Shown in pieces: positions 8,728-64,000 of a stretch of 64,000 nt of DNA. Made by a program: the position numbers and the translations under genes. The stretch is taken from the IMG/VR virus record IMGVR_UViG_3300050821_016964, positions 5,794 through 69,793 of that record; one strand, given 5' to 3'. The DNA comes from a virus. The notes beneath the pieces were generated by a model. The model was not told the origin of the DNA, did not search any database, and was given only the letters and a program-made list of their open reading frames with translations. Numbering within the stretch: position 1 is the first letter of the stretch; each line of letters starts with the position of its first letter.

Positions 8728-8751
8728 TGTTCACCCTGGTTCACTAATGCT

Positions 8752-8770
8752 AAGCGCAGGCCCTGCGCAA
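8752..8770. repeat. parS-like palindrome copy 1 (aaGCGCAGGCCCTGCGCAA)
   Basis: Intergenic, 15-bp core palindrome; also at 24126, 36761, 46586. Confidence 0.8.
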
Positions 8771-8772
8771 GT

Positions 8773-9366
8773 TCAGCCCCGACCCATCGCCGCCAGGAGG
8801 GGATTCTGCTGCGGGCTCCGCCCCGCCAGTGCGCCCGCTCCCCCGGCACCCGCCCCGGCAAGCCCGGCCCCGGCCGCGCCAGCACCCGCCAGGCCGGCTC
8901 CTGTGCCTCCCGCCATCATCCCCGGCGGCATGCCGCCCTGGCCACCCTGCTGGAGCATCTGGAGCATCGCCATGAGCTGCTGGAGGCTGGCCTCGTCCCC
9001 GTCGCTGCCCGTCGTGTCCTGGTCCCCCGGGGGAGGGATCGCCTCAACCCCGCCGGGAGCCGGGGGCTGGGCCCCAGGCTGGCCCAGGAGAGCCGCCAGG
9101 ACGTTTGGGTCCATCGCCCCGGGACCCGAGTCGGCCGCAGGCATGCCACACGTCGGACACGAGCCGTCGTCCGCCGTGGGCGCACCGCATGATGGACACG
9201 GGGGACCCATGCCGGCCATGCCCATCGGACCACCCGGAAGCGCCCCGGCCAGCATCGCCTGCAAGATCATTGGATCGGGCTGCTCCCAGTTCCCCTCGGG
9301 ATCGGGGATGCCCGCGCCCATCCCGCCGCCCATCGGAATCCCGCCCCCGCCGCCTGGAATCATCAT
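8773..9366 (-). CDS. Gly/Pro/Met-rich low-complexity protein with CxxC..CxxC zinc ribbon
   Basis: CPSCG...CPTCG; GGAGGG RBS. Confidence 0.55.
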   Translation of the reverse strand: MMIPGGGGGIPMGGGMGAGIPDPEGNWEQPDPMILQAMLAGALPGGPMGMAGMGPPCPSCGAPTADDGSCPTCGMPAADSGPGAMDPNVLAALLGQPGAQPPAPGGVEAIPPPGDQDTTGSDGDEASLQQLMAMLQMLQQGGQGGMPPGMMAGGTGAGLAGAGAAGAGLAGAGAGGAGALAGRSPQQNPLLAAMGRG

Positions 9367-24091: not shown

Positions 24092-24125
24092 GGGACGCCC
24101 CCTTTCCGATTCGTTCACTTTTGGT

Positions 24126-24144
24126 TTGCGCAGGCCCTGCGCAA
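24126..24144. repeat. parS-like palindrome copy 2 (TTGCGCAGGCCCTGCGCAA)
   Basis: Perfect 9-1-9 palindrome, intergenic; 24110-24146 matches 46584-46620 (reverse complement) at 36/37. Confidence 0.85.
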
Positions 24145-24146
24145 GT

Positions 24147-24326
24147 TCAGGGGCCATCGAACTTCACGCGCGCCCATCCCATGCGCGGCCGGAGCTCGCC
24201 AGAGCGCTCCGCCACGATGTTGACCTGCTCCCGGCTTTTGCCGGGCTCGATGTCGTTCGGATCGGCATTCGTCTCCAGACCCGCGAAATCCCGAATGACG
24301 ACCCGAACGACTGGCTTGACGCCGAT
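24147..24326 (-). CDS. small tail-associated protein, probable ATC start
   Basis: GAGGAGG-TGTGCC-ATC; (M)GVKPVVRVVIRDFAGLETNADPNDIEPG... Confidence 0.55.
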   Translation of the reverse strand: MGVKPVVRVVIRDFAGLETNADPNDIEPGKSREQVNIVAERSGELRPRMGWARVKFDGP

Positions 24327-33707: not shown

Positions 33708-34148
33708 CTACAAAGGCCACCACCAGCGCAGGCCGGCGGCGTGATCAAAGAACTTCTGAGCATACGCCGCCCGCGTGGCCGCGTCCTTGGGCTCGGTCCC
33801 CGCAGGCACCAGGGCCGAGAAGGGCCCCGAGTACTTCTGGAAGAACGCCGCCTGCCGGGCCGTGGTCGCCGTCGTCTGGAGCGCGGCCAGAGCCGCCTCG
33901 ACGGTCCCTCCTGCCGCGATCACGTTCCCCGCCGCCGTGAAGCCGTCCGCTTCTGCGCTACACACGTCCGTCCGGTTCCGGTGCCCATCCCGGATCTCCG
34001 GCACATCGGTCCAGAAGAAACCGGCGACTCCGCGGTTGTCCCAGAGGACGACCAGGGAGAGCAGCACGATCACCACCCATTGCCAGTTAATGGACGTGGG
34101 CAGCGAGATGGCGAATCGGCGGCGGGTCGGAAACGAGATGTACGACAT
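33708..34148 (-). CDS. membrane-anchored hypothetical protein (start uncertain)
   Basis: TM segment WQWVVIVLLSLVVLW. Confidence 0.5.
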   Translation of the reverse strand: MSYISFPTRRRFAISLPTSINWQWVVIVLLSLVVLWDNRGVAGFFWTDVPEIRDGHRNRTDVCSAEADGFTAAGNVIAAGGTVEAALAALQTTATTARQAAFFQKYSGPFSALVPAGTEPKDAATRAAYAQKFFDHAAGLRWWWPL

Positions 34149-34641
34149 GCGGCTTTTCCTTCGGCGCTTTCGACTCATGGTGACGCACCACGGGTGAAGG
34201 GGCAAGACCCGCCGGCGCGGCCGCAGCGACCGCCGAAGTCATTGCAGCCGGCGCCGGCAGGATGGGTACGGGGTCCGGCGCGACTGACGCCTGTGTACCT
34301 CCAGGCATCACGGTTACGCCGAAGTACCCGTATCCCTTGTAGCCGATCGCGTCGGTCACGATCACGGAGACGACGTAGTTTCCAGGCACCGCATAAACGT
34401 GTTCCAGATCGAAGGATTGACCCTGAAGGCCAAGCGCCTCTGATCCTGAGCCGTCGCCGTAGTCGACAGTGGCTGTGCAGGAGCTTGGGGCTGGGTCGGT
34501 GAAGACTCCGGCCCGGCAGAATTCTCCGGGCGTGATGATGGCGTTGATTCCGGCATCGACCACCGGGGGGATAGGTTCGATCAGCGGTGCCAGGAGACTC
34601 CGGCACTCAAGCCGATCGAAGGTGAGGGGACGAATCTTCAA
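34087..34641 (-). CDS. PKD-domain protein with planctomycete LEPR-XLL-like motif
   Basis: 'RPLTFDRLECRSLLA'; 'TATVDYGDGSG...HVYAVPGNYVVSVIVTD'. Confidence 0.75.
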   Translation of the reverse strand: MKIRPLTFDRLECRSLLAPLIEPIPPVVDAGINAIITPGEFCRAGVFTDPAPSSCTATVDYGDGSGSEALGLQGQSFDLEHVYAVPGNYVVSVIVTDAIGYKGYGYFGVTVMPGGTQASVAPDPVPILPAPAAMTSAVAAAAPAGLAPSPVVRHHESKAPKEKPHVVHLVSDPPPIRHLAAHVH

Positions 34642-34811: not shown

Positions 34812-34840
34812 AGCCTACCACGATTCTCCCAGATGTGCAA
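34812..34840 (-). promoter_or_regulatory. sigma70-type promoter TTGCAC-N17-TAGGCT (extended -10)
   Basis: Exact 17-nt spacing; same GTGGTAGGCT as the promoter at 40813-40822. Confidence 0.6.
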
Positions 34841-34845
34841 ACGAC

Positions 34846-34947
34846 GTCGCCCGGCACTTCCGAGAAGCACCGAGCGACAGAGGGATCGTACGCGACCTAC
34901 AAGTCCATCAAGTTTCAATCCGCCCCCAGAGTTAAATCCAGGGGAAC
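34846..34947 (-). CRISPR. mini-CRISPR unit A: one repeat, 33-nt terminase-derived spacer, hairpin
   Basis: Repeat 34912-34947 = GTTCCCCTGGATTTAACTCTGGGGGCGGATTGAAAC; spacer 34879-34911; 15-bp hairpin 34846-34878 that pairs fully (G-U) only on the minus strand. Confidence 0.8.
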
Positions 34948-34949
34948 TC

Positions 34950-34978
34950 ATTCTCTCAATAACCACAAATTAGGTCAA
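34950..34978 (-). promoter_or_regulatory. promoter of mini-CRISPR unit A, TTGACC-N17-GAGAAT
   Basis: 17-nt spacing, TGn extension, abuts the repeat; -35 overlaps terL stop. Confidence 0.65.
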
Positions 34979-36732
34979 GCCAGAGTCACCCCCCGCTTGT
35001 CGCCGCCCTGCTTGCGTGCCCATGCCTTCTCCGCTGCTTTAATACTTTTGTACGTCGCGTACGAACCCTCTTGACTCTTCTTGTGCGCGAGCTTGGGCTT
35101 GTGGTAGTATAAACCAGTGTACATACACAGATAGCCTAGATTATCACATTGGTGGCTGTCCTTCGCCAGCGGCTTGTCTGTCACCTCACCGGCAACGACC
35201 TTGAACGCGTACCGCTCCATGTTGCGCACCAGGTGCGGGCAGGAGCCGCGGAGAATCCGGATCTTGGTGGTCCCGTCAGGCCGCACCCGGAGCCAGTCCT
35301 TGATCCGCAGAATGCGGCCCGTGGGATCATCGTACCCGTAAGTCAGCATCGTGCCACAGGTAGGCGTGCGGATCTTGAGCGTCTTGAACGCGTTCCGGTA
35401 CTGGGTCTCGGGCAGCATGCCGGAGCCGAGCTCACGCAGGTTCCCCCCGTGCGAGTCGAACAGGTGGGCATACATCTCCAGGTCGCCGATGTGGTCCTTC
35501 AGGGCCTGGGCTAAGAGCGCCGCATCGCAGCCCCGGATGTACGCTTCGTCGTAGAAGTACACGTAGTCGCCGTAGAGTAGGGGGTCCACCCCTGGCGTGC
35601 CGTCGTACTTCATGGGCGGGACAGCACAGAAGAGGAGCGCGCCGACCTTGAACCCGGGATCGATCGAGCAGAAGTGGCACCAGGACATGGGGATCGCGAA
35701 CGGCTCGACACCATGGACGCCGCGGGGGAAGAAGTGGCTCTCGAAGACGCGGGTGCCCGAGATCGCGAAGTCGCCGTCGATCCGGAGCCGGCGATCGTCG
35801 TCGGTCAGGCTGCTCTCGAAGTCTCGCTTGGCCCGCTCGGGCATGTGGACGTTGTCCCAGATCGACAGGAAGAACTCCTGCACCAAGGGCGTGGACGTGT
35901 CCCCCGTCTCCGCCTGCTCCTCGGCGATCGCCCCCGCCCGCTGGTGGAGCTCGAAGAGCGCCTGCGTCCCGACGTGCGGGGTGGCGCCCCACCAGAAGAA
36001 ACCGTTGCGGTCAATCAGGCGCGCCATCGCCTCGGTAAACCATCCTTCGTTCACTACCTCCTCGTCAAAAATACATATGTCGACATCTACACCCGAGATT
36101 GCTTCGGGGTCCGCCTTGGACGAGTAAAAATTGCACTCCCACCCGTTCTTGAGGACCAGTTTGGTAGGAATCCCCGCCGCCTTCTTCTCCCACGAGATGT
36201 CCTTGATCAGCCGGGGGGGGATCAGGGGAGGCGCGGGCTTGCCCCGGCCCAGGTCCCCGGGTCGCCGGGCACGCCAGACCTTCGTGGCCGGGTCCCGGAT
36301 CATCTGGAACGAGCCGGCCCGGCCGAGCTTGCGCCAGATGACCTCGCCGATCTTGTTCATGTCCCGCGCAACGACGATGGCCCGGCCGTTCTCCCGCGGG
36401 TACTTGTCCGGGTTCGGGTGCATCCCCGTCATCGCCCAGCCGAGCTCGATCATCGAACTGGTCGTCTTGCCCGAGCGGTTCGAGCCGATCGCGACCCGCT
36501 GCCTGGCCATCGAGTTGTGGAACGCCCACTGAGCCGGCATCGGCTCGTAGATCCGCAAGGCCTCGCACTGGCGCCGCTCCAGCTCCAGGAGCATCGCCCG
36601 GACCCGGGCCACCTCCGTCGGCGCCAGCGTCCCCCCCTCGCCAGGGAGATGCAGCCCCGCGTTCTCCAGGACGACCGGATCGAATGCCCCGTGCCGGTGC
36701 CGCGGACCCCCGATATTCCGCCGCTCGGGCAT
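34975..36732 (-). CDS. terL: terminase large subunit
   Basis: Walker A GSNRSGKT, Walker B ICIFDEE, 'WGATP', nuclease 'SIDPG' and 'SHQCDNLGY'. Confidence 0.93.
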   Translation of the reverse strand: MPERRNIGGPRHRHGAFDPVVLENAGLHLPGEGGTLAPTEVARVRAMLLELERRQCEALRIYEPMPAQWAFHNSMARQRVAIGSNRSGKTTSSMIELGWAMTGMHPNPDKYPRENGRAIVVARDMNKIGEVIWRKLGRAGSFQMIRDPATKVWRARRPGDLGRGKPAPPLIPPRLIKDISWEKKAAGIPTKLVLKNGWECNFYSSKADPEAISGVDVDICIFDEEVVNEGWFTEAMARLIDRNGFFWWGATPHVGTQALFELHQRAGAIAEEQAETGDTSTPLVQEFFLSIWDNVHMPERAKRDFESSLTDDDRRLRIDGDFAISGTRVFESHFFPRGVHGVEPFAIPMSWCHFCSIDPGFKVGALLFCAVPPMKYDGTPGVDPLLYGDYVYFYDEAYIRGCDAALLAQALKDHIGDLEMYAHLFDSHGGNLRELGSGMLPETQYRNAFKTLKIRTPTCGTMLTYGYDDPTGRILRIKDWLRVRPDGTTKIRILRGSCPHLVRNMERYAFKVVAGEVTDKPLAKDSHQCDNLGYLCMYTGLYYHKPKLAHKKSQEGSYATYKSIKAAEKAWARKQGGDKRGVTLA

Positions 36733-36792: not shown

Positions 36793-37296
36793 TTAGTTGA
36801 ACGGTTCGTGAGGCTCGTCTTCAGGAATCTCCTGAAACTCTTCGGCCGCAGCAGCTTGCGCCTCCTGGGCTGCAAGGGCCTCGGCAGCCTTCCGTTCCCT
36901 GTAGGCACGCCTCCCCGCGGGGGTATGGGCAGGATAGGACGTGAGCACCCGGAGCTGGGGGATCGCCGAGGCGACAGCGCCCAGGAGCTCCTCCTCGGAC
37001 ATCTCCTCGACTGCGGTGGTCCGCACGTCGTCGGAGTGCCAGTTCACCAGGCGGCAGATCGAGTCCAAGATCCGCTGGCGGGAGATCGCCCCCGTCTTGG
37101 CATTACAGAGCTCGTTGACCATGATCTCCGCCAGGGCCGCCTGGCCGTCCTTCTGCTTCTCCCGGCCGAGGGCCTCGTAGATCTCGTTCAGAAGGCCCGA
37201 GCGGTCGAACGACGAGCCGGGGCGAGCCAGCGCCTTGACGACCTTCCGGTTCGTCAACGTGTTAACCAGCGATTCTTCCTTGCTAGGACGAGCCAT
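36793..37296 (-). CDS. putative terminase small subunit
   Basis: Immediately upstream of terL; 'MARPSK' start, 'VEEMSEEEL' motif. Confidence 0.55.
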   Translation of the reverse strand: MARPSKEESLVNTLTNRKVVKALARPGSSFDRSGLLNEIYEALGREKQKDGQAALAEIMVNELCNAKTGAISRQRILDSICRLVNWHSDDVRTTAVEEMSEEELLGAVASAIPQLRVLTSYPAHTPAGRRAYRERKAAEALAAQEAQAAAAEEFQEIPEDEPHEPFN

Positions 37297-37319
37297 GGCG
37301 CCCAGTCTACCAGAGGCGC

Positions 37320-37362
37320 AAAAACACGGCCAGCCTCCCCCGCGCGACTGGGAAAGGCTGGC
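37320..37362 (-). terminator. intrinsic terminator closing CRISPR-derived unit B
   Basis: GCCAGCC...GGCTGGC stem followed by GTGTTTTT on minus strand. Confidence 0.65.
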
Positions 37363-37387
37363 TGTGCGAACTGCGTCCCTTGGAGAA

Positions 37388-37424
37388 GTTTCAATCCGCC
37401 CCCGACGGTGAGGCCGGGGGAGAG
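37388..37424 (-). CRISPR. solitary CRISPR repeat (unit B)
   Basis: CTCTCCCCCGGCCTCACCGTCGGGGGCGGATTGAAAC, 37 nt, internal hairpin; last 16 nt identical to the unit A repeat. Confidence 0.8.
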
Positions 37425-37427
37425 CAC

Positions 37428-37456
37428 ACTATGCCCGAGCCTCAGGGCATCGTCAA
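37428..37456 (-). promoter_or_regulatory. promoter of unit B, TTGACG-N17-CATAGT, containing inverted repeat ATGCCC-N8-GGGCAT
   Basis: 17-nt spacing, abuts the repeat as in unit A. Confidence 0.6.
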
Positions 37457-37957
37457 GGTCGGCTCGCCCCGGATCTCCCAGCAGTGCGTGTACGTGAAGT
37501 TGCCACTCGACCGCTTCACGGCGTTCATCAACTTCACCGCCGTTCCCGTCGTCCAGTCACACAGAGGCTCCCAGCCAGCGTTGACATCGAAGATCCAGTG
37601 ATTCCCCCCCTCGTACCGCGAGGCGATCCAGTGCGTGTACCGGTACCGGGCCCGGAACGGCACCTCCGGCGCCATCCAGGGACCGCCCCACTGCACCCGG
37701 ACCACCCCGCGGTAGGGCAACTGGCTCGCCACCGTGCGGTGGTGCCGCAGCCCCAGCTTCGTGATCGCCTCGGCCATCATCGAGGGGTTCATGTACCCCC
37801 GCTGCTCGAAGTCCCCCAGGCGCGGCCGCACCTCCTCCAGCGAGCACCCGACCGCCGCAGCCAGAGCCGCGGGGCCGCAGTTACACCCCCACTCCTCGTA
37901 CGCCGCATCCAATTCGTCCGAGCTGAATCCACACCCCGGTCGCGTCGCGGTTCTCAT
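37442..37957 (-). CDS. C39-peptidase-like hypothetical protein
   Basis: 'CNCGPAALAAA...THWIA...IFDVN' Cys-His-Asp pattern. Confidence 0.55.
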   Translation of the reverse strand: MRTATRPGCGFSSDELDAAYEEWGCNCGPAALAAAVGCSLEEVRPRLGDFEQRGYMNPSMMAEAITKLGLRHHRTVASQLPYRGVVRVQWGGPWMAPEVPFRARYRYTHWIASRYEGGNHWIFDVNAGWEPLCDWTTGTAVKLMNAVKRSSGNFTYTHCWEIRGEPTLTMP

Positions 37958-37969
37958 CGCCTCATCCTT

Positions 37970-38218
37970 TCAGAATGGTCTCTCCCACGGCTTCGGCTTG
38001 ATCGGCAGCCTCGCCTCCGGTACCCCGTCTACGGTCCATCCCTTACTGGGCGAGTCGGGCGATAACCCTTTCGGAAGCCCCAGGAAGTCGAAGTACATAC
38101 CACAGTCGGCACACTTGATCGTGATGTCCGCGCTATACGACTCGACGCGCCCTTCGTCATCCGTGAGACGGTTCACGTTCGTCATTGCCTCGAATGATTC
38201 GTGCTTACACTCGGCCAT
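37970..38218 (-). CDS. small Zn-finger-like phage protein
   Basis: MAECKHE...ITIKCADCG; AGGAG RBS. Confidence 0.6.
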   Translation of the reverse strand: MAECKHESFEAMTNVNRLTDDEGRVESYSADITIKCADCGMYFDFLGLPKGLSPDSPSKGWTVDGVPEARLPIKPKPWERPF

Positions 38219-40847: not shown

Positions 40848-41036
40848 ATGCCGCAGACGCAGATCGAAGCTGAACTGGTCCACGCCCTGGAGGAAGCCTC
40901 GTTCGTCACGCTCCTCCTGGCGTATGCATGCGGCACCGACAACGAGGCGGACAACAAGGCACGGGAGTCGTTCGTCCGCATGACGCTGGCCTGGGACAAG
41001 CTGATCAAGAAGGCAAGAGAGGGGAGTGAGAAGTGA
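40848..41036 (+). CDS. hypothetical protein
   Basis: GGAGGAG RBS, MPQTQIEAEL. Confidence 0.6.
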   Translation: MPQTQIEAELVHALEEASFVTLLLAYACGTDNEADNKARESFVRMTLAWDKLIKKAREGSEK

Positions 41037-42283
41037 GCACAAAACACGCCGAGATCTTCGCCGCTTTAGCGGCTCCGTTTCATCCCAGTGACGTCAAGCA
41101 GCGGGACGGCCAGGGGCGGAACAAGCTGAGTTATATCACGGCCAGGACCGTCATGAATCGCCTTGACGAAGTGCTCGGACCGGAGGGGTGGCACTTCGAG
41201 CTTCAGCCGTGGGGAGACTCGCTGATCGGCACCCTGATCCTCTTTCTCCCGGATGGAACCGTCGTCAGAAAGAGCGACGCCGGCGGCCGGGCCGGGATGA
41301 AGACGGCCGACGACGATACCAAGTCCGCGGCATCGGACTGCCTGAAGCGCTGCGCCGTGCTTGTAGGGATCGGCAGGAGCCTCTACGGTGATGGCCAGGT
41401 CAGTTTCGGCGCCGGGAACGGCCAGCAGCAGCCCCAGCCGGCAATGCGGCCCGCTGACACGCGCTCGGCCACGGAGCGGCTGATCGACTGGTGCGCCAAG
41501 GAGGGGCACTCGGGGCGGCTTCAGGCGATCGCCAGAAGCGTCTACAACTGCCAGGCCCCGGAGCTGAACGCGGTTCAGGCCAAGGCGATCTACAAGCTGA
41601 TCAAGGACTCCGGCGCCGTGGGCAGCGTTCCACAACCCGGGCCGCGCTTCCCGATCGAGCAGCGAATCGAGGAGGATACCCGGCATTCCCAGGATATGGC
41701 AGCGGCGAGAGCGTCGCGCCAGCCCGATCCCGTGGATCAGGTAGTCGAGAACATCAAGGGCGCCCAGGAGCCGGGGAAGAACGCCAACGGCAACCCGGTG
41801 AAGTTTGGCTGGCCGCACTCGGGAGTGTCGCTGTTCGCGTGGATGAAGAACATCAGTAAGGCGTTCGGCAAGGACGTGATCGGCATCGTGAAGGACCGCT
41901 TTCCCGAGCAGATGGCGACCGATGGAACCTTTCGATCGTGGCCGCCGGCCATCGTGGAAGAGGCTGCCGTCGACATCGCGAAGTTCGTGTCGGGCTGGCC
42001 CGGCTACTCGGGCGAGTTCGACAAGCGCTTGCCCGTCAGCCTACATGACCTGCGGGACAAGCTCTGGACCGCAGCGGGCGAACTGGCCGATGCCCTGGGC
42101 CAGCAGCCGACGACGGAGGCGATCGAGAACCTGATCCAGCAGACCAGCCAGTCGCTGGCCGGCCGCTTCGGCGGCGAGGTCATCGACGTACTCGAGGCAT
42201 GCGAGAACAAAGAGATGCTCGAAGCGATCCTGGAGGTCGTCGAGAGTGATGTCAAGGATTCCAAGGCCCTTACTGCGGAGTAA
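41033..42283 (+). CDS. Rad52/Sak-family single-strand annealing protein
   Basis: 'LAAPF..SDVKQR...LSYITARTVMNRLDEVLGPEGW...KSAASDCLKRCAVLVGIGRSLY'. Confidence 0.85.
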   Translation: MSTKHAEIFAALAAPFHPSDVKQRDGQGRNKLSYITARTVMNRLDEVLGPEGWHFELQPWGDSLIGTLILFLPDGTVVRKSDAGGRAGMKTADDDTKSAASDCLKRCAVLVGIGRSLYGDGQVSFGAGNGQQQPQPAMRPADTRSATERLIDWCAKEGHSGRLQAIARSVYNCQAPELNAVQAKAIYKLIKDSGAVGSVPQPGPRFPIEQRIEEDTRHSQDMAAARASRQPDPVDQVVENIKGAQEPGKNANGNPVKFGWPHSGVSLFAWMKNISKAFGKDVIGIVKDRFPEQMATDGTFRSWPPAIVEEAAVDIAKFVSGWPGYSGEFDKRLPVSLHDLRDKLWTAAGELADALGQQPTTEAIENLIQQTSQSLAGRFGGEVIDVLEACENKEMLEAILEVVESDVKDSKALTAE

Positions 42284-48374: not shown

Positions 48375-49916
48375 GTGCTTACTCCCCACGACTACCAGAC
48401 GGAAGCCATTGGCAAGGGACTGGCCGAACTGGACCGGGCCGAGGCCGCGCTCATCGTCATGCCTACCGGGACGGGCAAGTCGATGGTGGGGGGGGGCGTG
48501 CTCCACGAGGTGGTCCGCCGCGGGGGACGCGGGATGGTGCTCGTGCACCGGAAGGAATTCATCTCCCAGTGGGGGAATGCCCTCGACGCCTGGGGGATCA
48601 ACTGGGGTGTCGAGCAGGCGGAGCAGAAGTGCCACCGGGACACGCTTCACGGACGGGTGGACGTCGTGATTGGCTCCAAGGACACGCTCCGGGGCGCCCG
48701 GCTCGACAGGTGGCACAAGGACACGTTCAGCGTCATTGTCTCCGATGAGGCGCACCGGGGGGTGGCCCGCTCGTGGACGAACATCTTCGGCCACTTCGGA
48801 TCGGCCCGGCGGCTGGGGCTGACGGCAACCCCCGAGCGCACGGACGAGGAGACGATCCAGGGCGTCTTCGGCAACGTGGCGTACGAACTCCCCTTCTGGG
48901 AGGCGGTCGACAAGGGGTATATCGCCGCCCCGCTCTTCATCCGGCCGACGACACACATCGACCTGTCCGCCCTGAAGGACTCGGGAGGCGACCTGAACCA
49001 GGGGGATCTGGAGGACGCGATCAGCAAGCACATCGAAGAGCTCGTGAACCTGGCGCTGCCTCACCTTGACGGCCGGCCGATCCTGACCTTCACCCCCCGG
49101 GTCCACTCGGCGACGGCGATGGCGGCCGGCTTTAGAACCCATCCCCGGGGGTTCCCCTCGGCCAGCGTGTCGGGCAAGAGCCAGGACCGGGACCTGGTGA
49201 TCCAGCAGTTCCGGGAGGGGCAGTTCCGCAACCTGTGCTCGTGCGACCTCCTGCGGGAGGGAACCGACTTTCCCGACGTGGGCAACCTGGCGATCGCCAG
49301 GCCGACGAAGAGCGGCCTCGTGTACCGGCAGATGCTGGGGCGGGGCCTGCGGAAGAAACCCGACAACTTCTGCATCGTCGTCGATTACTCGGTCAAGAAC
49401 GGCAAGCACGACATCTTCGAGCCGATCAACCTGTTCGACGCGACCGGGATGGACCTGGATGTGCTGGCAATCGCCGGCAAGTTCGTGAACGAGGGGAAGC
49501 ACAAGGACCCGCGGGACGCGCTGAAGGAAGCCGAGAGAGTCCACCGGCAGGAGGTGGCTCTGCGGGTGCAGGCACGCGAGCGCACGCCCAGTTACAAGAT
49601 GCTGGCCTACGACCCGTTCCAGATCGGGAGCTTGCTCGGTATCCCCAACCGGCAACGGGAGGGGCAGAAGCCCTGCTCGGCGCGCTCACGGGATGTTCTG
49701 GAGCGATACAAGCTCGATCCTACGGGGATCTCCAACACCCAGGCCCAGAAGCTGATCGCCGAACTGGACCGCCGGCAGGCCGAGCACCTGGCCACGCACC
49801 GGCAGCTTGCCCTGCTGGTCTCCAAAGAAGTTCCCGTGGAGTTTGCGCGAGAGATGACCTTTGAGGCCGCGCACGAGGATCTGGACATCATCATCGGAGG
49901 GAGAAAGAGGGCATGA
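48375..49916 (+). CDS. SF2 DEAH helicase
   Basis: MPTGTGKS, SDEAH, GLTATPER, QMLGRGLR. Confidence 0.92.
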   Translation: MLTPHDYQTEAIGKGLAELDRAEAALIVMPTGTGKSMVGGGVLHEVVRRGGRGMVLVHRKEFISQWGNALDAWGINWGVEQAEQKCHRDTLHGRVDVVIGSKDTLRGARLDRWHKDTFSVIVSDEAHRGVARSWTNIFGHFGSARRLGLTATPERTDEETIQGVFGNVAYELPFWEAVDKGYIAAPLFIRPTTHIDLSALKDSGGDLNQGDLEDAISKHIEELVNLALPHLDGRPILTFTPRVHSATAMAAGFRTHPRGFPSASVSGKSQDRDLVIQQFREGQFRNLCSCDLLREGTDFPDVGNLAIARPTKSGLVYRQMLGRGLRKKPDNFCIVVDYSVKNGKHDIFEPINLFDATGMDLDVLAIAGKFVNEGKHKDPRDALKEAERVHRQEVALRVQARERTPSYKMLAYDPFQIGSLLGIPNRQREGQKPCSARSRDVLERYKLDPTGISNTQAQKLIAELDRRQAEHLATHRQLALLVSKEVPVEFAREMTFEAAHEDLDIIIGGRKRA

Positions 49917-50191
49917 TCTTGATCTTCGAGCAGGATACGCGGAAACACGACAACGGCCGTTTCACGTTATGGCCAGCGCTATTCCGTGGCTGGTGGAGGA
50001 ACCGTAGGAATTGGCGAATCGCCTGGGGACTCTGGTCGATCTCCTACTACCCCGAGCCTGGGCTTCGCAGCTTCTTCGATTGGGTTGAGGACGGGAAAAC
50101 GACATGGGTTGGCGGAGATGCCAGGAATTCTCATGAATAACACACGCACGAGGATCCGGACATCATCATCGGGGGGAGAAAGAGGGCATGA
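49870..50191 (+). repeat. 47-bp direct repeat (49870-49916, 50145-50191) flanking ORF 49913..50140
   Basis: CGCACGAGGATCYGGACATCATCATCGGRGGGAGAAAGAGGGCATGA, 2 mismatches. Confidence 0.9.
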
Positions 50192-50714
50192 CACGCTGCG
50201 ACTACTGTGGACGACGTTTCGATCGGCCTGGGTTTTATCCGGACTGCGAAAAAGCGCATCCCGCGCCTGACCTCGCCCAGGCAATTGCCGAACTGATTGA
50301 GATGGATCTGGCAAACCGTCGTGGCTGTGGCATCAGCGGTATCGATCCGGACATCCAGGACGAGATCCGCGATACCTGGGCTGAACTCGTCCGCCAGGAA
50401 CTGGAGAAACGGGCATGAAAGAGTACGCCGACTACATCCGAACCATCGTGGCATGGGTGCTCCTTCAGGACGACATCGCCGAGTTCGCGGTCCGGTTTCA
50501 TCCGGTGCGATTCGGGACGCCAGCGATCCAAGTGATCCTTCGTTTCCCCACGGCCATATCTCAGGAATGTAGCGTGTCTTATGTATGGAGTATCCTGCAG
50601 CTTGAGCATGCGGGAGAGGTTGACGCCGTCATGGTACGTACGCTCGAAACCCTGGCGGACGAAGCACGGACGCACCGGCCCAAGAGCAACTTCAAGGCGA
50701 GCCCTTTCTCATGA
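49913..50714 (+). CDS. three small hypothetical ORFs (49913-50140 Trp-rich, 50188-50418, 50415-50714)
   Basis: ORF track, coupled. Confidence 0.55.
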
Positions 50715-63564: not shown

Positions 63565-64000
63565 AAGCGCGCACGCCCGAGAAGTGGTGTGACTATCGCC
63601 CAGTCGTCACCGTGATGGACGTCCTCGAGACCGGCGCCTGTTTCTCTGGAATCCAGGAATTCCTCACCTCACATCATCGCGTGATCACCGCGCCCGCCGA
63701 TCGCTACCGAGAGTCCCACATCCAAGTTGCCGCCCGTGCTGACGGCTACGGCGGCTACGGCGACGGCGGCTACGGCTACGGCGGCGGCTACGACGGCGGC
63801 TACGGCTACGGCTACGGCGACGGCGACGACGGCGACGGCTACGGCGACGGCGGCTACGGCTACGGCGGCGGCGGCGGCTACGGCGGCGGCGACGGCTACG
63901 GCTACGGCGGCGGCTACGGCGACGACGGCTACGGCGACGGCGGCGGCTACGGCTACGACGGCGACGGCTACGGCGGCGGCTACGGCTACGACGGCGACGG
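63561..64000 (+). CDS. Gly/Tyr/Asp-repeat protein (truncated at window edge)
   Basis: GTG start; from 63741 a low-complexity GGC/TAC/GAC array (DGYGGYGDGG...). Confidence 0.75.
   Translation, partial: MKARTPEKWCDYRPVVTVMDVLETGACFSGIQEFLTSHHRVITAPADRYRESHIQVAARADGYGGYGDGGYGYGGGYDGGYGYGYGDGDDGDGYGDGGYGYGGGGGYGGGDGYGYGGGYGDDGYGDGGGYGYDGDGYGGGYGYDGD

Follow-up and report, generated by a model that had tools for sequence, protein, structure and literature searches.

A solitary type I-C CRISPR repeat beside the terminase genes of a soil phage of planctomycetes as a candidate gene for a short crRNA-like guide

Upstream of the terminase genes of a soil phage of planctomycete bacteria lies a compact intergenic unit, called unit B here, which most likely hijacks the CRISPR proteins of the host. 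The reading we prefer, with a probability of roughly one half, is that unit B is a gene of the phage whose product, a small crRNA-like RNA, would be loaded into the host type I-C Cascade as a short guide. This reading is ranked first because a sister unit on the same phage, unit A, itself looks like a guide and because the geometry of unit B copies that of non-cutting regulators of the host. It is favoured over a mere decoy on account of a terL copy recoded in the seed, which is found for unit A, and of host I-C crRNA-like regulators of the same build, and it is made largely by analogy with unit A.

The phage DNA comes from a 69,793-nt IMG/VR virus record that is rated complete. Bases 5794-69793 of that record form the stretch of 64,000 nt that was analysed (the window), and phage coordinates below are those of the window.

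Anatomy of unit B

Unit B spans 37456-37319 on the minus strand, between ORF171 and an ORF in the terS position, and is made up of a promoter, a repeat, a unique stretch of 25 nt and a terminator. Its parts and the neighbouring genes are as follows.

37428..37456, minus strand: promoter, with the -35 hexamer TTGACG (37456-37451), a 17-nt spacer and the -10 hexamer CATAGT (37433-37428)
37388..37424, minus strand: solitary 37-nt type I-C CRISPR repeat, identified by its likeness to array repeats and by its fold
37363..37387, minus strand: guide-like sequence (psi-spacer) of 25 nt, the unique stretch before the terminator stem
37319..37362, minus strand: intrinsic terminator, a 13-pair stem with an 8-nt loop (37362-37329) followed by the U-tract CGTGTTTTTG
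36793..37296, minus strand: terS candidate ORF of 167 aa directly downstream of unit B, assigned by position
34975..36732, minus strand: terL, large terminase subunit (phrog_2, 3.2e-19)
37442..37957, minus strand: ORF171, upstream of unit B, with 56 homologues in the protein collection and a W..NCGP motif

An earlier, sequence-only reading of this DNA had described the same succession of parts, namely a TTGACG-N17-CATAGT promoter, a 37-nt repeat sharing its last 16 nt with unit A, and about 25 nt of unique sequence running into a GC stem with a U-tract. All of them are present, the repeat at 37424-37388, the unique stretch at 37387-37363 and the 13-pair hairpin with CGTGTTTTTG after it. The claim that the unit is CRISPR-derived and has a promoter and a terminator of its own is likewise upheld by the identity with host array repeats, by the promoter scan and by the hairpin. 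Its placement upstream of a putative terS is right as to position; the name terS is owed to position only, the 167-aa ORF having no PHROG or Pfam match.

The promoter agrees with a sigma-70-like consensus at 9 of 12 positions, and the stop codon of ORF171 (37444-37442) falls between its two hexamers. Between 34000 and 38500 there are three promoter-like sites against 0.7 expected from shuffled sequences, and two of the three directly precede the two repeats. The modelled fold of 37428-37318 consists of a repeat hairpin and a separate terminator hairpin (-54.2 kcal/mol, z = -2.67), an energy matched by 2 of 200 shuffles. The repeat hairpin is predicted to have 8 pairs, 37420-37413 pairing with 37406-37399, and it leaves in the predicted fold an 11-nt tail on its 3' side, CGGAUUGAAAC, which ends in ATTGAAAC. 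The window contains the unique 25 nt, TTCTCCAAGGGACGCAGTTCGCACA, a single time when up to 3 mismatches are allowed, and a guide extended from them to the canonical 33-37 nt would enter the 5' arm of the terminator stem. No Rfam family was matched and no tRNA genes were found.

The whole of unit B is flanked by a 15-nt inverted repeat (14/15; 37214-37228 and 37461-37475) whose arms fall within the two neighbouring genes, at the 3' end of ORF171 and in the 5' portion of the ORF in the terS position; by a rough estimate such a repeat would be met by chance in 500 nt with a probability of about 0.03.

In type I-C systems, Cas5c cleaves at the 3' base of the repeat hairpin. For the transcription, processing, loading and targeting of unit B we infer the following course. 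Host RNA polymerase would start at the unit B promoter, a few nucleotides into the repeat, and host Cas5c would cut the transcript at the 3' base of the repeat hairpin. The product would carry the last 11 nt of the repeat, CGGATTGAAAC (37398-37388), as its predicted 5' handle, followed by the guide-like sequence and by the terminator hairpin, which would take the place of the missing second repeat. Cascade would then assemble on this processed RNA. Since a stable 13-bp hairpin leaves a free stretch of about 25 nt, where host spacers have 33-37 nt, the complex would probably be shortened and would probably bind its target without cutting it. If the RNA is a guide, we give about half of the weight to a target in a rival phage or another mobile element and about half to a cas or defence promoter of the host, as for the viral crRNA-like RNAs known as Cracrs.

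The repeat and the type I-C system of the host

The last 16 nt of the repeat, GGGGGCGGATTGAAAC, together with the TT that follows, are common to unit B and unit A (34927-34912). This 16-mer has exactly two copies in the 69,793-nt record, those of units A and B, 2,476 nt apart. Weak matches to the handle at 50216 and 59449 were set aside, as they are found inside coding sequence and have no hairpin. The stems of the two repeats differ and both still pair.

Over its full length the unit B repeat is identical at 34 of 37 positions to array repeats of Isosphaeraceae and Fimbriiglobus (loci L024 and L032/L041). A search for the two-repeat pattern found arrays with 37-nt repeats and a period of 70-74 nt in 53 GTDB genome stretches, 46 of them titled Planctomycetota, and the taxa that bear them include Singulisphaera, Isosphaeraceae, Fimbriiglobus, Gemmataceae and Schlesneria. 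The arrays of two Singulisphaera genomes (L028, L072) adjoin genes for Cas8c/Csd1, Cas7/Csd2, Cas4 and Cas1c, all above curated cut-offs, and a Cas8c match is present in 40 of 121 Isosphaeraceae genomes. By these comparisons the unit B repeat is a true CRISPR repeat of the host type I-C system in its 37-nt planctomycete form, which counts in favour of the guide reading, and the host type I system that the sequence-only reading had expected can be named as type I-C of Planctomycetota.

Soil runs that bear the phage also hold contigs in which the unit B repeat is matched twice with 34-39 other letters between, and an RNA run holds repeat-only pieces that differ from the unit B repeat by 1-4 letters; we read both as probable host arrays living beside the phage. 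In the RNA run X6 (assembled contigs of a library that possibly contains DNA), exact contigs cover 34024-34480, 36818-36968 and 37910-38090 of the phage. At unit B this run has repeat-only pieces that run into other sequence and no contig across the guide, contigs being unable to show transcripts.

The repeat is solitary, as had been claimed: in the 100 nt that follow unit A and in those that follow unit B, local alignment found neither an intact nor a degenerate second repeat. Descent of the unit B terminator from a second repeat by decay was rejected, the alignment score of 8 comparing with a shuffle mean of 7.8 and being equalled in 256 of 500 shuffles. Cas7/Csd2 was not found in the phage record.

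These features bear on a second reading, which we consider possible at clearly less than even odds, that unit B encodes an RNA anti-CRISPR (Racr). The transcript would be nothing but a repeat mimic that draws Cas5c and Cas7 away into malformed complexes and so lowers I-C immunity, the 25 nt after the repeat would carry no information and the hairpin would merely end the RNA. A near-perfect host repeat with its own promoter, in an intergenic position, with no second repeat and no Cas7 found in the record, fits this well, and the reading needs nothing beyond what is seen. Racrs have been shown to work, the type I-C RacrIC1 among them (PMC10651486). A guide would also compete for Cas proteins, and the guide and decoy readings can therefore both hold.

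None of 1,023 host spacers from the arrays fetched has a full-length match to the window (the best is 17 nt), and none of 1,064 unique host spacers has one to about 180 viral loci and the phage. Hence the PAM is not derivable from real protospacers.

Host regulators of the same build

Type I-C loci of Isosphaeraceae carry, between cas3 and cas5, genes made of a solitary repeat, a short guide and a hairpin. We picked 28 of them from 40 Isosphaeraceae I-C loci. For 20 of the 28, the opposite strand contains a partial match to the PAM-proximal end of the guide at a distance of 100-180 nt; 4 more are matched upstream on their own strand, and no match was seen for the last 4. The opposite-strand matches run for 14-19 nt from the PAM-proximal end, with mismatches often at positions 6 and 12. 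One example, to which L086 and L089-L123 are alike, is the following.

L085 7414-7600, plus strand: host regulator gene, with its target at 7384-7362 on the minus strand

By their sequence and arrangement these elements appear to be crRNA-like autoregulators of the CreR/CreA type. The target is flanked by TTC in 13 loci whose repeat has the usual 32 nt, whereas in the 8 loci with the 37-nt form (L085, L086, L115, L116, L117, L119, L121 and L122) it is GCC in 6 and GTC in 2, and the 37-nt form of I-C may read a different PAM. The 37-nt form also has a longer, lower-scoring Cas8c.

The free guide before the hairpin measures 26 nt in a Singulisphaera regulator and 25 nt in unit B. That the 25 free nucleotides and the hairpin of unit B copy the host regulatory crRNA-like genes speaks against the Racr reading, in which this stretch would be idle, and for a loaded guide.

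Unit A and its counterpart in terL

Unit A lies on the far side of the terminase genes and is built in the same way.

34950..34978, minus strand: promoter, TTGACC, 17-nt spacer, GAGAAT; starts 3 nt after the terL stop
34912..34948, minus strand: solitary repeat, its stem-loop diverged yet pairing, its last 16 nt the same as in unit B
34879..34911, minus strand: spacer of 33 nt, whose antisense reading encodes EGSYATYKSI
34835..34878, minus strand: terminal hairpin, 34878-34864 pairing with 34860-34846, with a weak U-tract
35039..35071, plus strand: the phage's own counterpart of the spacer at the terL 3' end, 26/33 nt identical, with the 5' flank GCT

The terminal hairpin was not picked up by the terminator scan. 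The spacer is an inverted copy of the 3' end of terL, complementary to it at 22 of 24 positions in the PAM-distal part, and the peptide EGSYATYKSI read from its antisense is identical to TerL at 10 of 10 residues. The seven differences between spacer and terL, at spacer positions 3, 6, 7, 8, 9, 15 and 27, are all synonymous in terL and include a switch between serine codon families; when 7 substitutions were placed at random 200,000 times in a simulation, the peptide survived once. Five of the seven fall within the first 9 nt of the spacer (Fisher p = 0.0086). The GCT flank of the terL counterpart would become GCC by a synonymous AAA-to-AAG change in the adjoining lysine codon.

We infer that the unit A spacer was probably shaped under coding constraint, either in the terL of a relative or in the phage's own terL at an earlier stage, and that the carrier's own copy has probably been recoded where Cascade reads first. 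Such a seed-recoded pattern would be expected only if the unit A RNA guides Cascade to DNA. It suggests that unit A is a guide against the terL of relatives to which the carrier would be immune through recoding. A rival with a perfect match to the unit A spacer was not found in the searches.

This has consequences for both readings of unit B. A pure decoy needs no recoding, and a unit of the same build that has a seed-recoded self-counterpart thus argues against the Racr reading. The sequence-only reading had seen in the two units a two-part Cas-manipulation system. The pairing with unit A stands; the manipulation part has to be amended, unit A being apparently not just a decoy, since a spacer that is a recoded terL copy suggests a conflict between related phages that is directed by guides, and not pure manipulation of Cas proteins.

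Searches for a target of the unit B guide

In its own phage genome, the unit B guide has no match longer than 9 PAM-proximal nt and no peptide-level counterpart. Among other mobile elements it gave no match in IMG/VR, one weak match in GenBank phages (E = 6) and plasmid matches at E of at least 1 in unrelated taxa. The JGI metagenomes yielded two matches, which is about the number expected by chance (a rough estimate with an assumed collection size). Both are without a handle or a PAM, diverge after position 24 and show no likeness to the phage, and one of them has no DNA relative in the 121 Isosphaeraceae genomes.

Host DNA was searched for PAM-adjacent partial seeds. At up to 2 mismatches, the 121 Isosphaeraceae genomes hold 6 matches to the guide and 7 to its reversed control. 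Across 869 kb of host DNA from 93 CRISPR/cas loci, seed runs reach 12 at most, a length attained by 132 of 200 shuffled guides, and by eye the guide resembles none of the 28 host crRNA-like guides that were picked. Runs of at least 9 PAM-proximal nt in the host cas loci and genomes do not rise above chance, the sampled genomes being without the exact unit B repeat. The proposal of the sequence-only reading that unit B is a decoy or a silencer of host genes thus gained nothing from the partial-seed search of host cas loci and genomes. The negative host searches are nevertheless weak evidence, since the unit B repeat is not present in exact form in any genome sampled and the guides of host regulators vary between genomes. 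For the Racr reading, the lack of any target match in the collections searched is what a decoy predicts, and it counts against the guide reading of unit B.

The ORF171 gene of a relative was considered as the origin of the unit B guide because an antisense frame of the guide, GCANCVP, resembles GCNCGP of ORF171. This was rejected, the peptide GCANCVP being absent from all 56 homologues. Short matches to the guide in 80 loci of ORF171 relatives turned out to be a conserved motif and a ribosome-binding site. The W..NCGP motif is invariant near the N-terminus in the ORF171 family, which has no Pfam or PHROG name and whose relatives are common in IMG/VR contigs (122 found).

Solitary repeats in other phages

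The 16-mer GGGGGCGGATTGAAAC occurs in 21 IMG/VR loci. In 11 of them (8 contigs, 10 distinct units) it is part of a full hairpin-plus-handle form, and all 11 are solitary. Stems differ between units and between phages with the pairing kept, and none of the 10 other distinct units showed a self-counterpart, which counts against the guide reading.

In the lineage of L005, L016 and L018, two solitary repeats 2,512 nt apart bracket terS (phrog_51) and terL (phrog_2). Six proteins of the unit B phage have no tblastn match in the loci of this lineage, and the bracket therefore recurs in a second phage lineage. The pairing of units A and B around the packaging genes, which had been pointed out before, is in this way seen twice.

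The same arrangement is not general in the TerL clade, as far as the collections searched suggest. An exact-peptide search of IMG/VR with TerL found nothing, and a profile search found 80 loci with at best 60% identity, none of which has a repeat unit near terL. TerL was found in none of 401 Planctomycetota genomes. Among the 121 Isosphaeraceae genomes it has 4 prophage-like relatives (41-42% identity), none with a repeat unit within 1.5 kb of terL. Closer TerL relatives (P0002-P0005) are 75-69% identical. A terL variant of roughly 94% identity is present in X4, one of the soil runs X1-X4 in which the phage occurs.

Elsewhere, the same solitary repeat stands directly before start codons (L005 840-880; L023 2843-2870; L012; L015). 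In L005 it ends 11 nt before the ATG of terS and in L023 the ATG directly follows GAAAC, an arrangement in which the repeat would be part of the mRNA leader. Such repeats leave no room for a guide, which favours the Racr reading.

A further possibility is that unit B has no RNA function at all and is the relic of a captured repeat-spacer or a crossover point for the exchange of packaging modules. L005 1-3367 and L016+L023 760-4126 are 99.8% identical over 3,367 nt, and this homology stops exactly at the last base of the solitary repeat, after which nothing is shared and different guide-like sequences follow. That the guide-like sequences differ behind a common repeat also speaks for the guide reading. 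The breakpoint is either a mosaic junction at the repeat, which would suit a crossover point, or an assembly join, which would deprive the argument of its force. Also in keeping with a relic or crossover point are the bracketing of terS-terL by solitary repeats in two lineages without a tblastn match and the 15-nt inverted repeat (14/15) around unit B. However, the distance from promoter to repeat is the same in both units, the hairpin is intact, the full 11-nt handle and a strong terminator are kept, and stems that vary between units and phages go on pairing. With promoter, hairpin, handle and terminator all maintained, we regard a relic or recombination site as improbable. Explanations other than a guide, a decoy or a relic are given a similarly small share.

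A more speculative and rather doubtful extension of the guide reading treats units A and B as a linked cassette of weapon and immune allele around the terminase genes. Single-repeat guides would turn Cascade on the packaging alleles of co-infecting relatives, and the phage's own allele would be protected by recoding (PAM and seed, in terL) or by replacement (the terS-position gene, which has no known relatives). Linkage would keep guide and immune allele together, and the repeats would serve as crossover points of the module.

Other features of the window

At 63707-64000 there is a tandem array of short units, with 15 overlapping copies at a spacing of 9-15 nt, which continues past the last base of the window. 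Two copies of a 47-nt sequence (96% identical; 49870-49916 and 50145-50191), in direct orientation, each end in a ribosome-binding site and ATG, and two neighbouring genes therefore have a leader and start in common. A sequence of 38 nt, containing the GC palindrome GCGCAGGCCCTGCGC, is found at 8739-8776 and again (87% identical) at 24113-24150, 15 kb apart; the pair may be a shared terminator or regulatory hairpin. A recombinase of the Rad52/22 family (2.7e-15; 41033-42283, plus strand) is encoded where the plus-strand gene block starts. The phage record yielded no tyrosine integrase.

Significance and relation to known systems

The range of CRISPR repeat mimics carried by phages is widened by these units, which add soil phages of Planctomycetota and the 37-nt type I-C repeat. 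Units A and B together make a compact test case for separating the uses of such RNAs as decoy, regulator and weapon. The sequence of unit A is exceptionally clear evidence for real guiding by an RNA that has one repeat and, where the second would be, a terminator, and unit B, if it is a short non-cutting guide, would provide a natural minimal scaffold for type I-C repression. In the papers considered here, the planctomycete host range with the 37-nt I-C form, the recurring pair of solitary repeats around terS-terL and the seed-recoded own copy next to unit A are absent, and the matches listed in a full-text search on mini-arrays, crRNA-like RNAs and Racrs make no mention of Planctomycetota under any form of the name.

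Solitary repeat units and Racrs, including the type I-C RacrIC1, were described by Camara-Wilpert et al. 2023 (PMC10651486). Like these, unit B is a single host-like repeat in a viral intergenic region, after a promoter and without a second repeat; of the cas genes, Cas7/Csd2 was looked for in the phage record and not found. Unlike the Racrs as presented in that text, it has its own terminator, a defined 25-nt tail and a sister unit with a real spacer. Racrs inhibit CRISPR, as unit B would on the Racr reading. The 2,103 viral units from IMG/VR3 listed with that paper may already include unit B.

Closest in build are the Cracrs of Liu et al. (10.1101/2024.10.29.618823). CracrVA1 combines a single repeat with a spacer-like part and a rho-independent terminator, and shortened guides are reported there to give complexes with fewer backbone subunits. 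This precedent also speaks for the guide reading of unit B. Unit B has the same make-up of one repeat, short guide and terminator, and belongs to type I-C, of which there are examples among the Cracrs. By the definition in that paper, the guide of a Cracr shares 9 or more PAM-proximal nt with the promoter of a host cas or toxin gene or with the regulator of the host itself; for unit B no such match above chance was found in the host loci and genomes searched. The phyla named in the same text are Pseudomonadota, Bacillota and Actinomycetota, whereas the host here belongs to Planctomycetota. Units A and B also differ from the stacked Cracr array in lying 2.5 kb apart, each with its own promoter.

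Host regulators of the CreR/CreA type, crRNA-like RNAs encoded in cas loci, are the subject of Shmakov et al. (10.1101/2023.03.03.530964). The Isosphaeraceae genes between cas3 and cas5 of I-C loci resemble them in build and in the partial PAM-proximal matches nearby. Unit B differs in being on a phage, outside a cas locus and without a nearby partial match.

Viral mini-CRISPR arrays serve related viruses in fighting each other (Medvedeva et al. 2019, cited through PMC11656645). The repeats of both phage units match those of the host in the same way, and the unit A spacer corresponds to terL, a conserved gene of its own kind of virus, with the copy of the carrier mismatched; unlike the mini-arrays as described there, the phage units have a single repeat and a terminator hairpin in place of two repeats around a spacer. 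A match of the spacer to a related virus, which characterizes mini-arrays, was not found for unit B in IMG/VR, GenBank phages or JGI metagenomes, and for unit A it is indirect, by way of the recoded counterpart in its own terL. Solitary repeat units, Racrs, Cracrs and viral mini-arrays have thus all been described already, and it is with them that unit B belongs.
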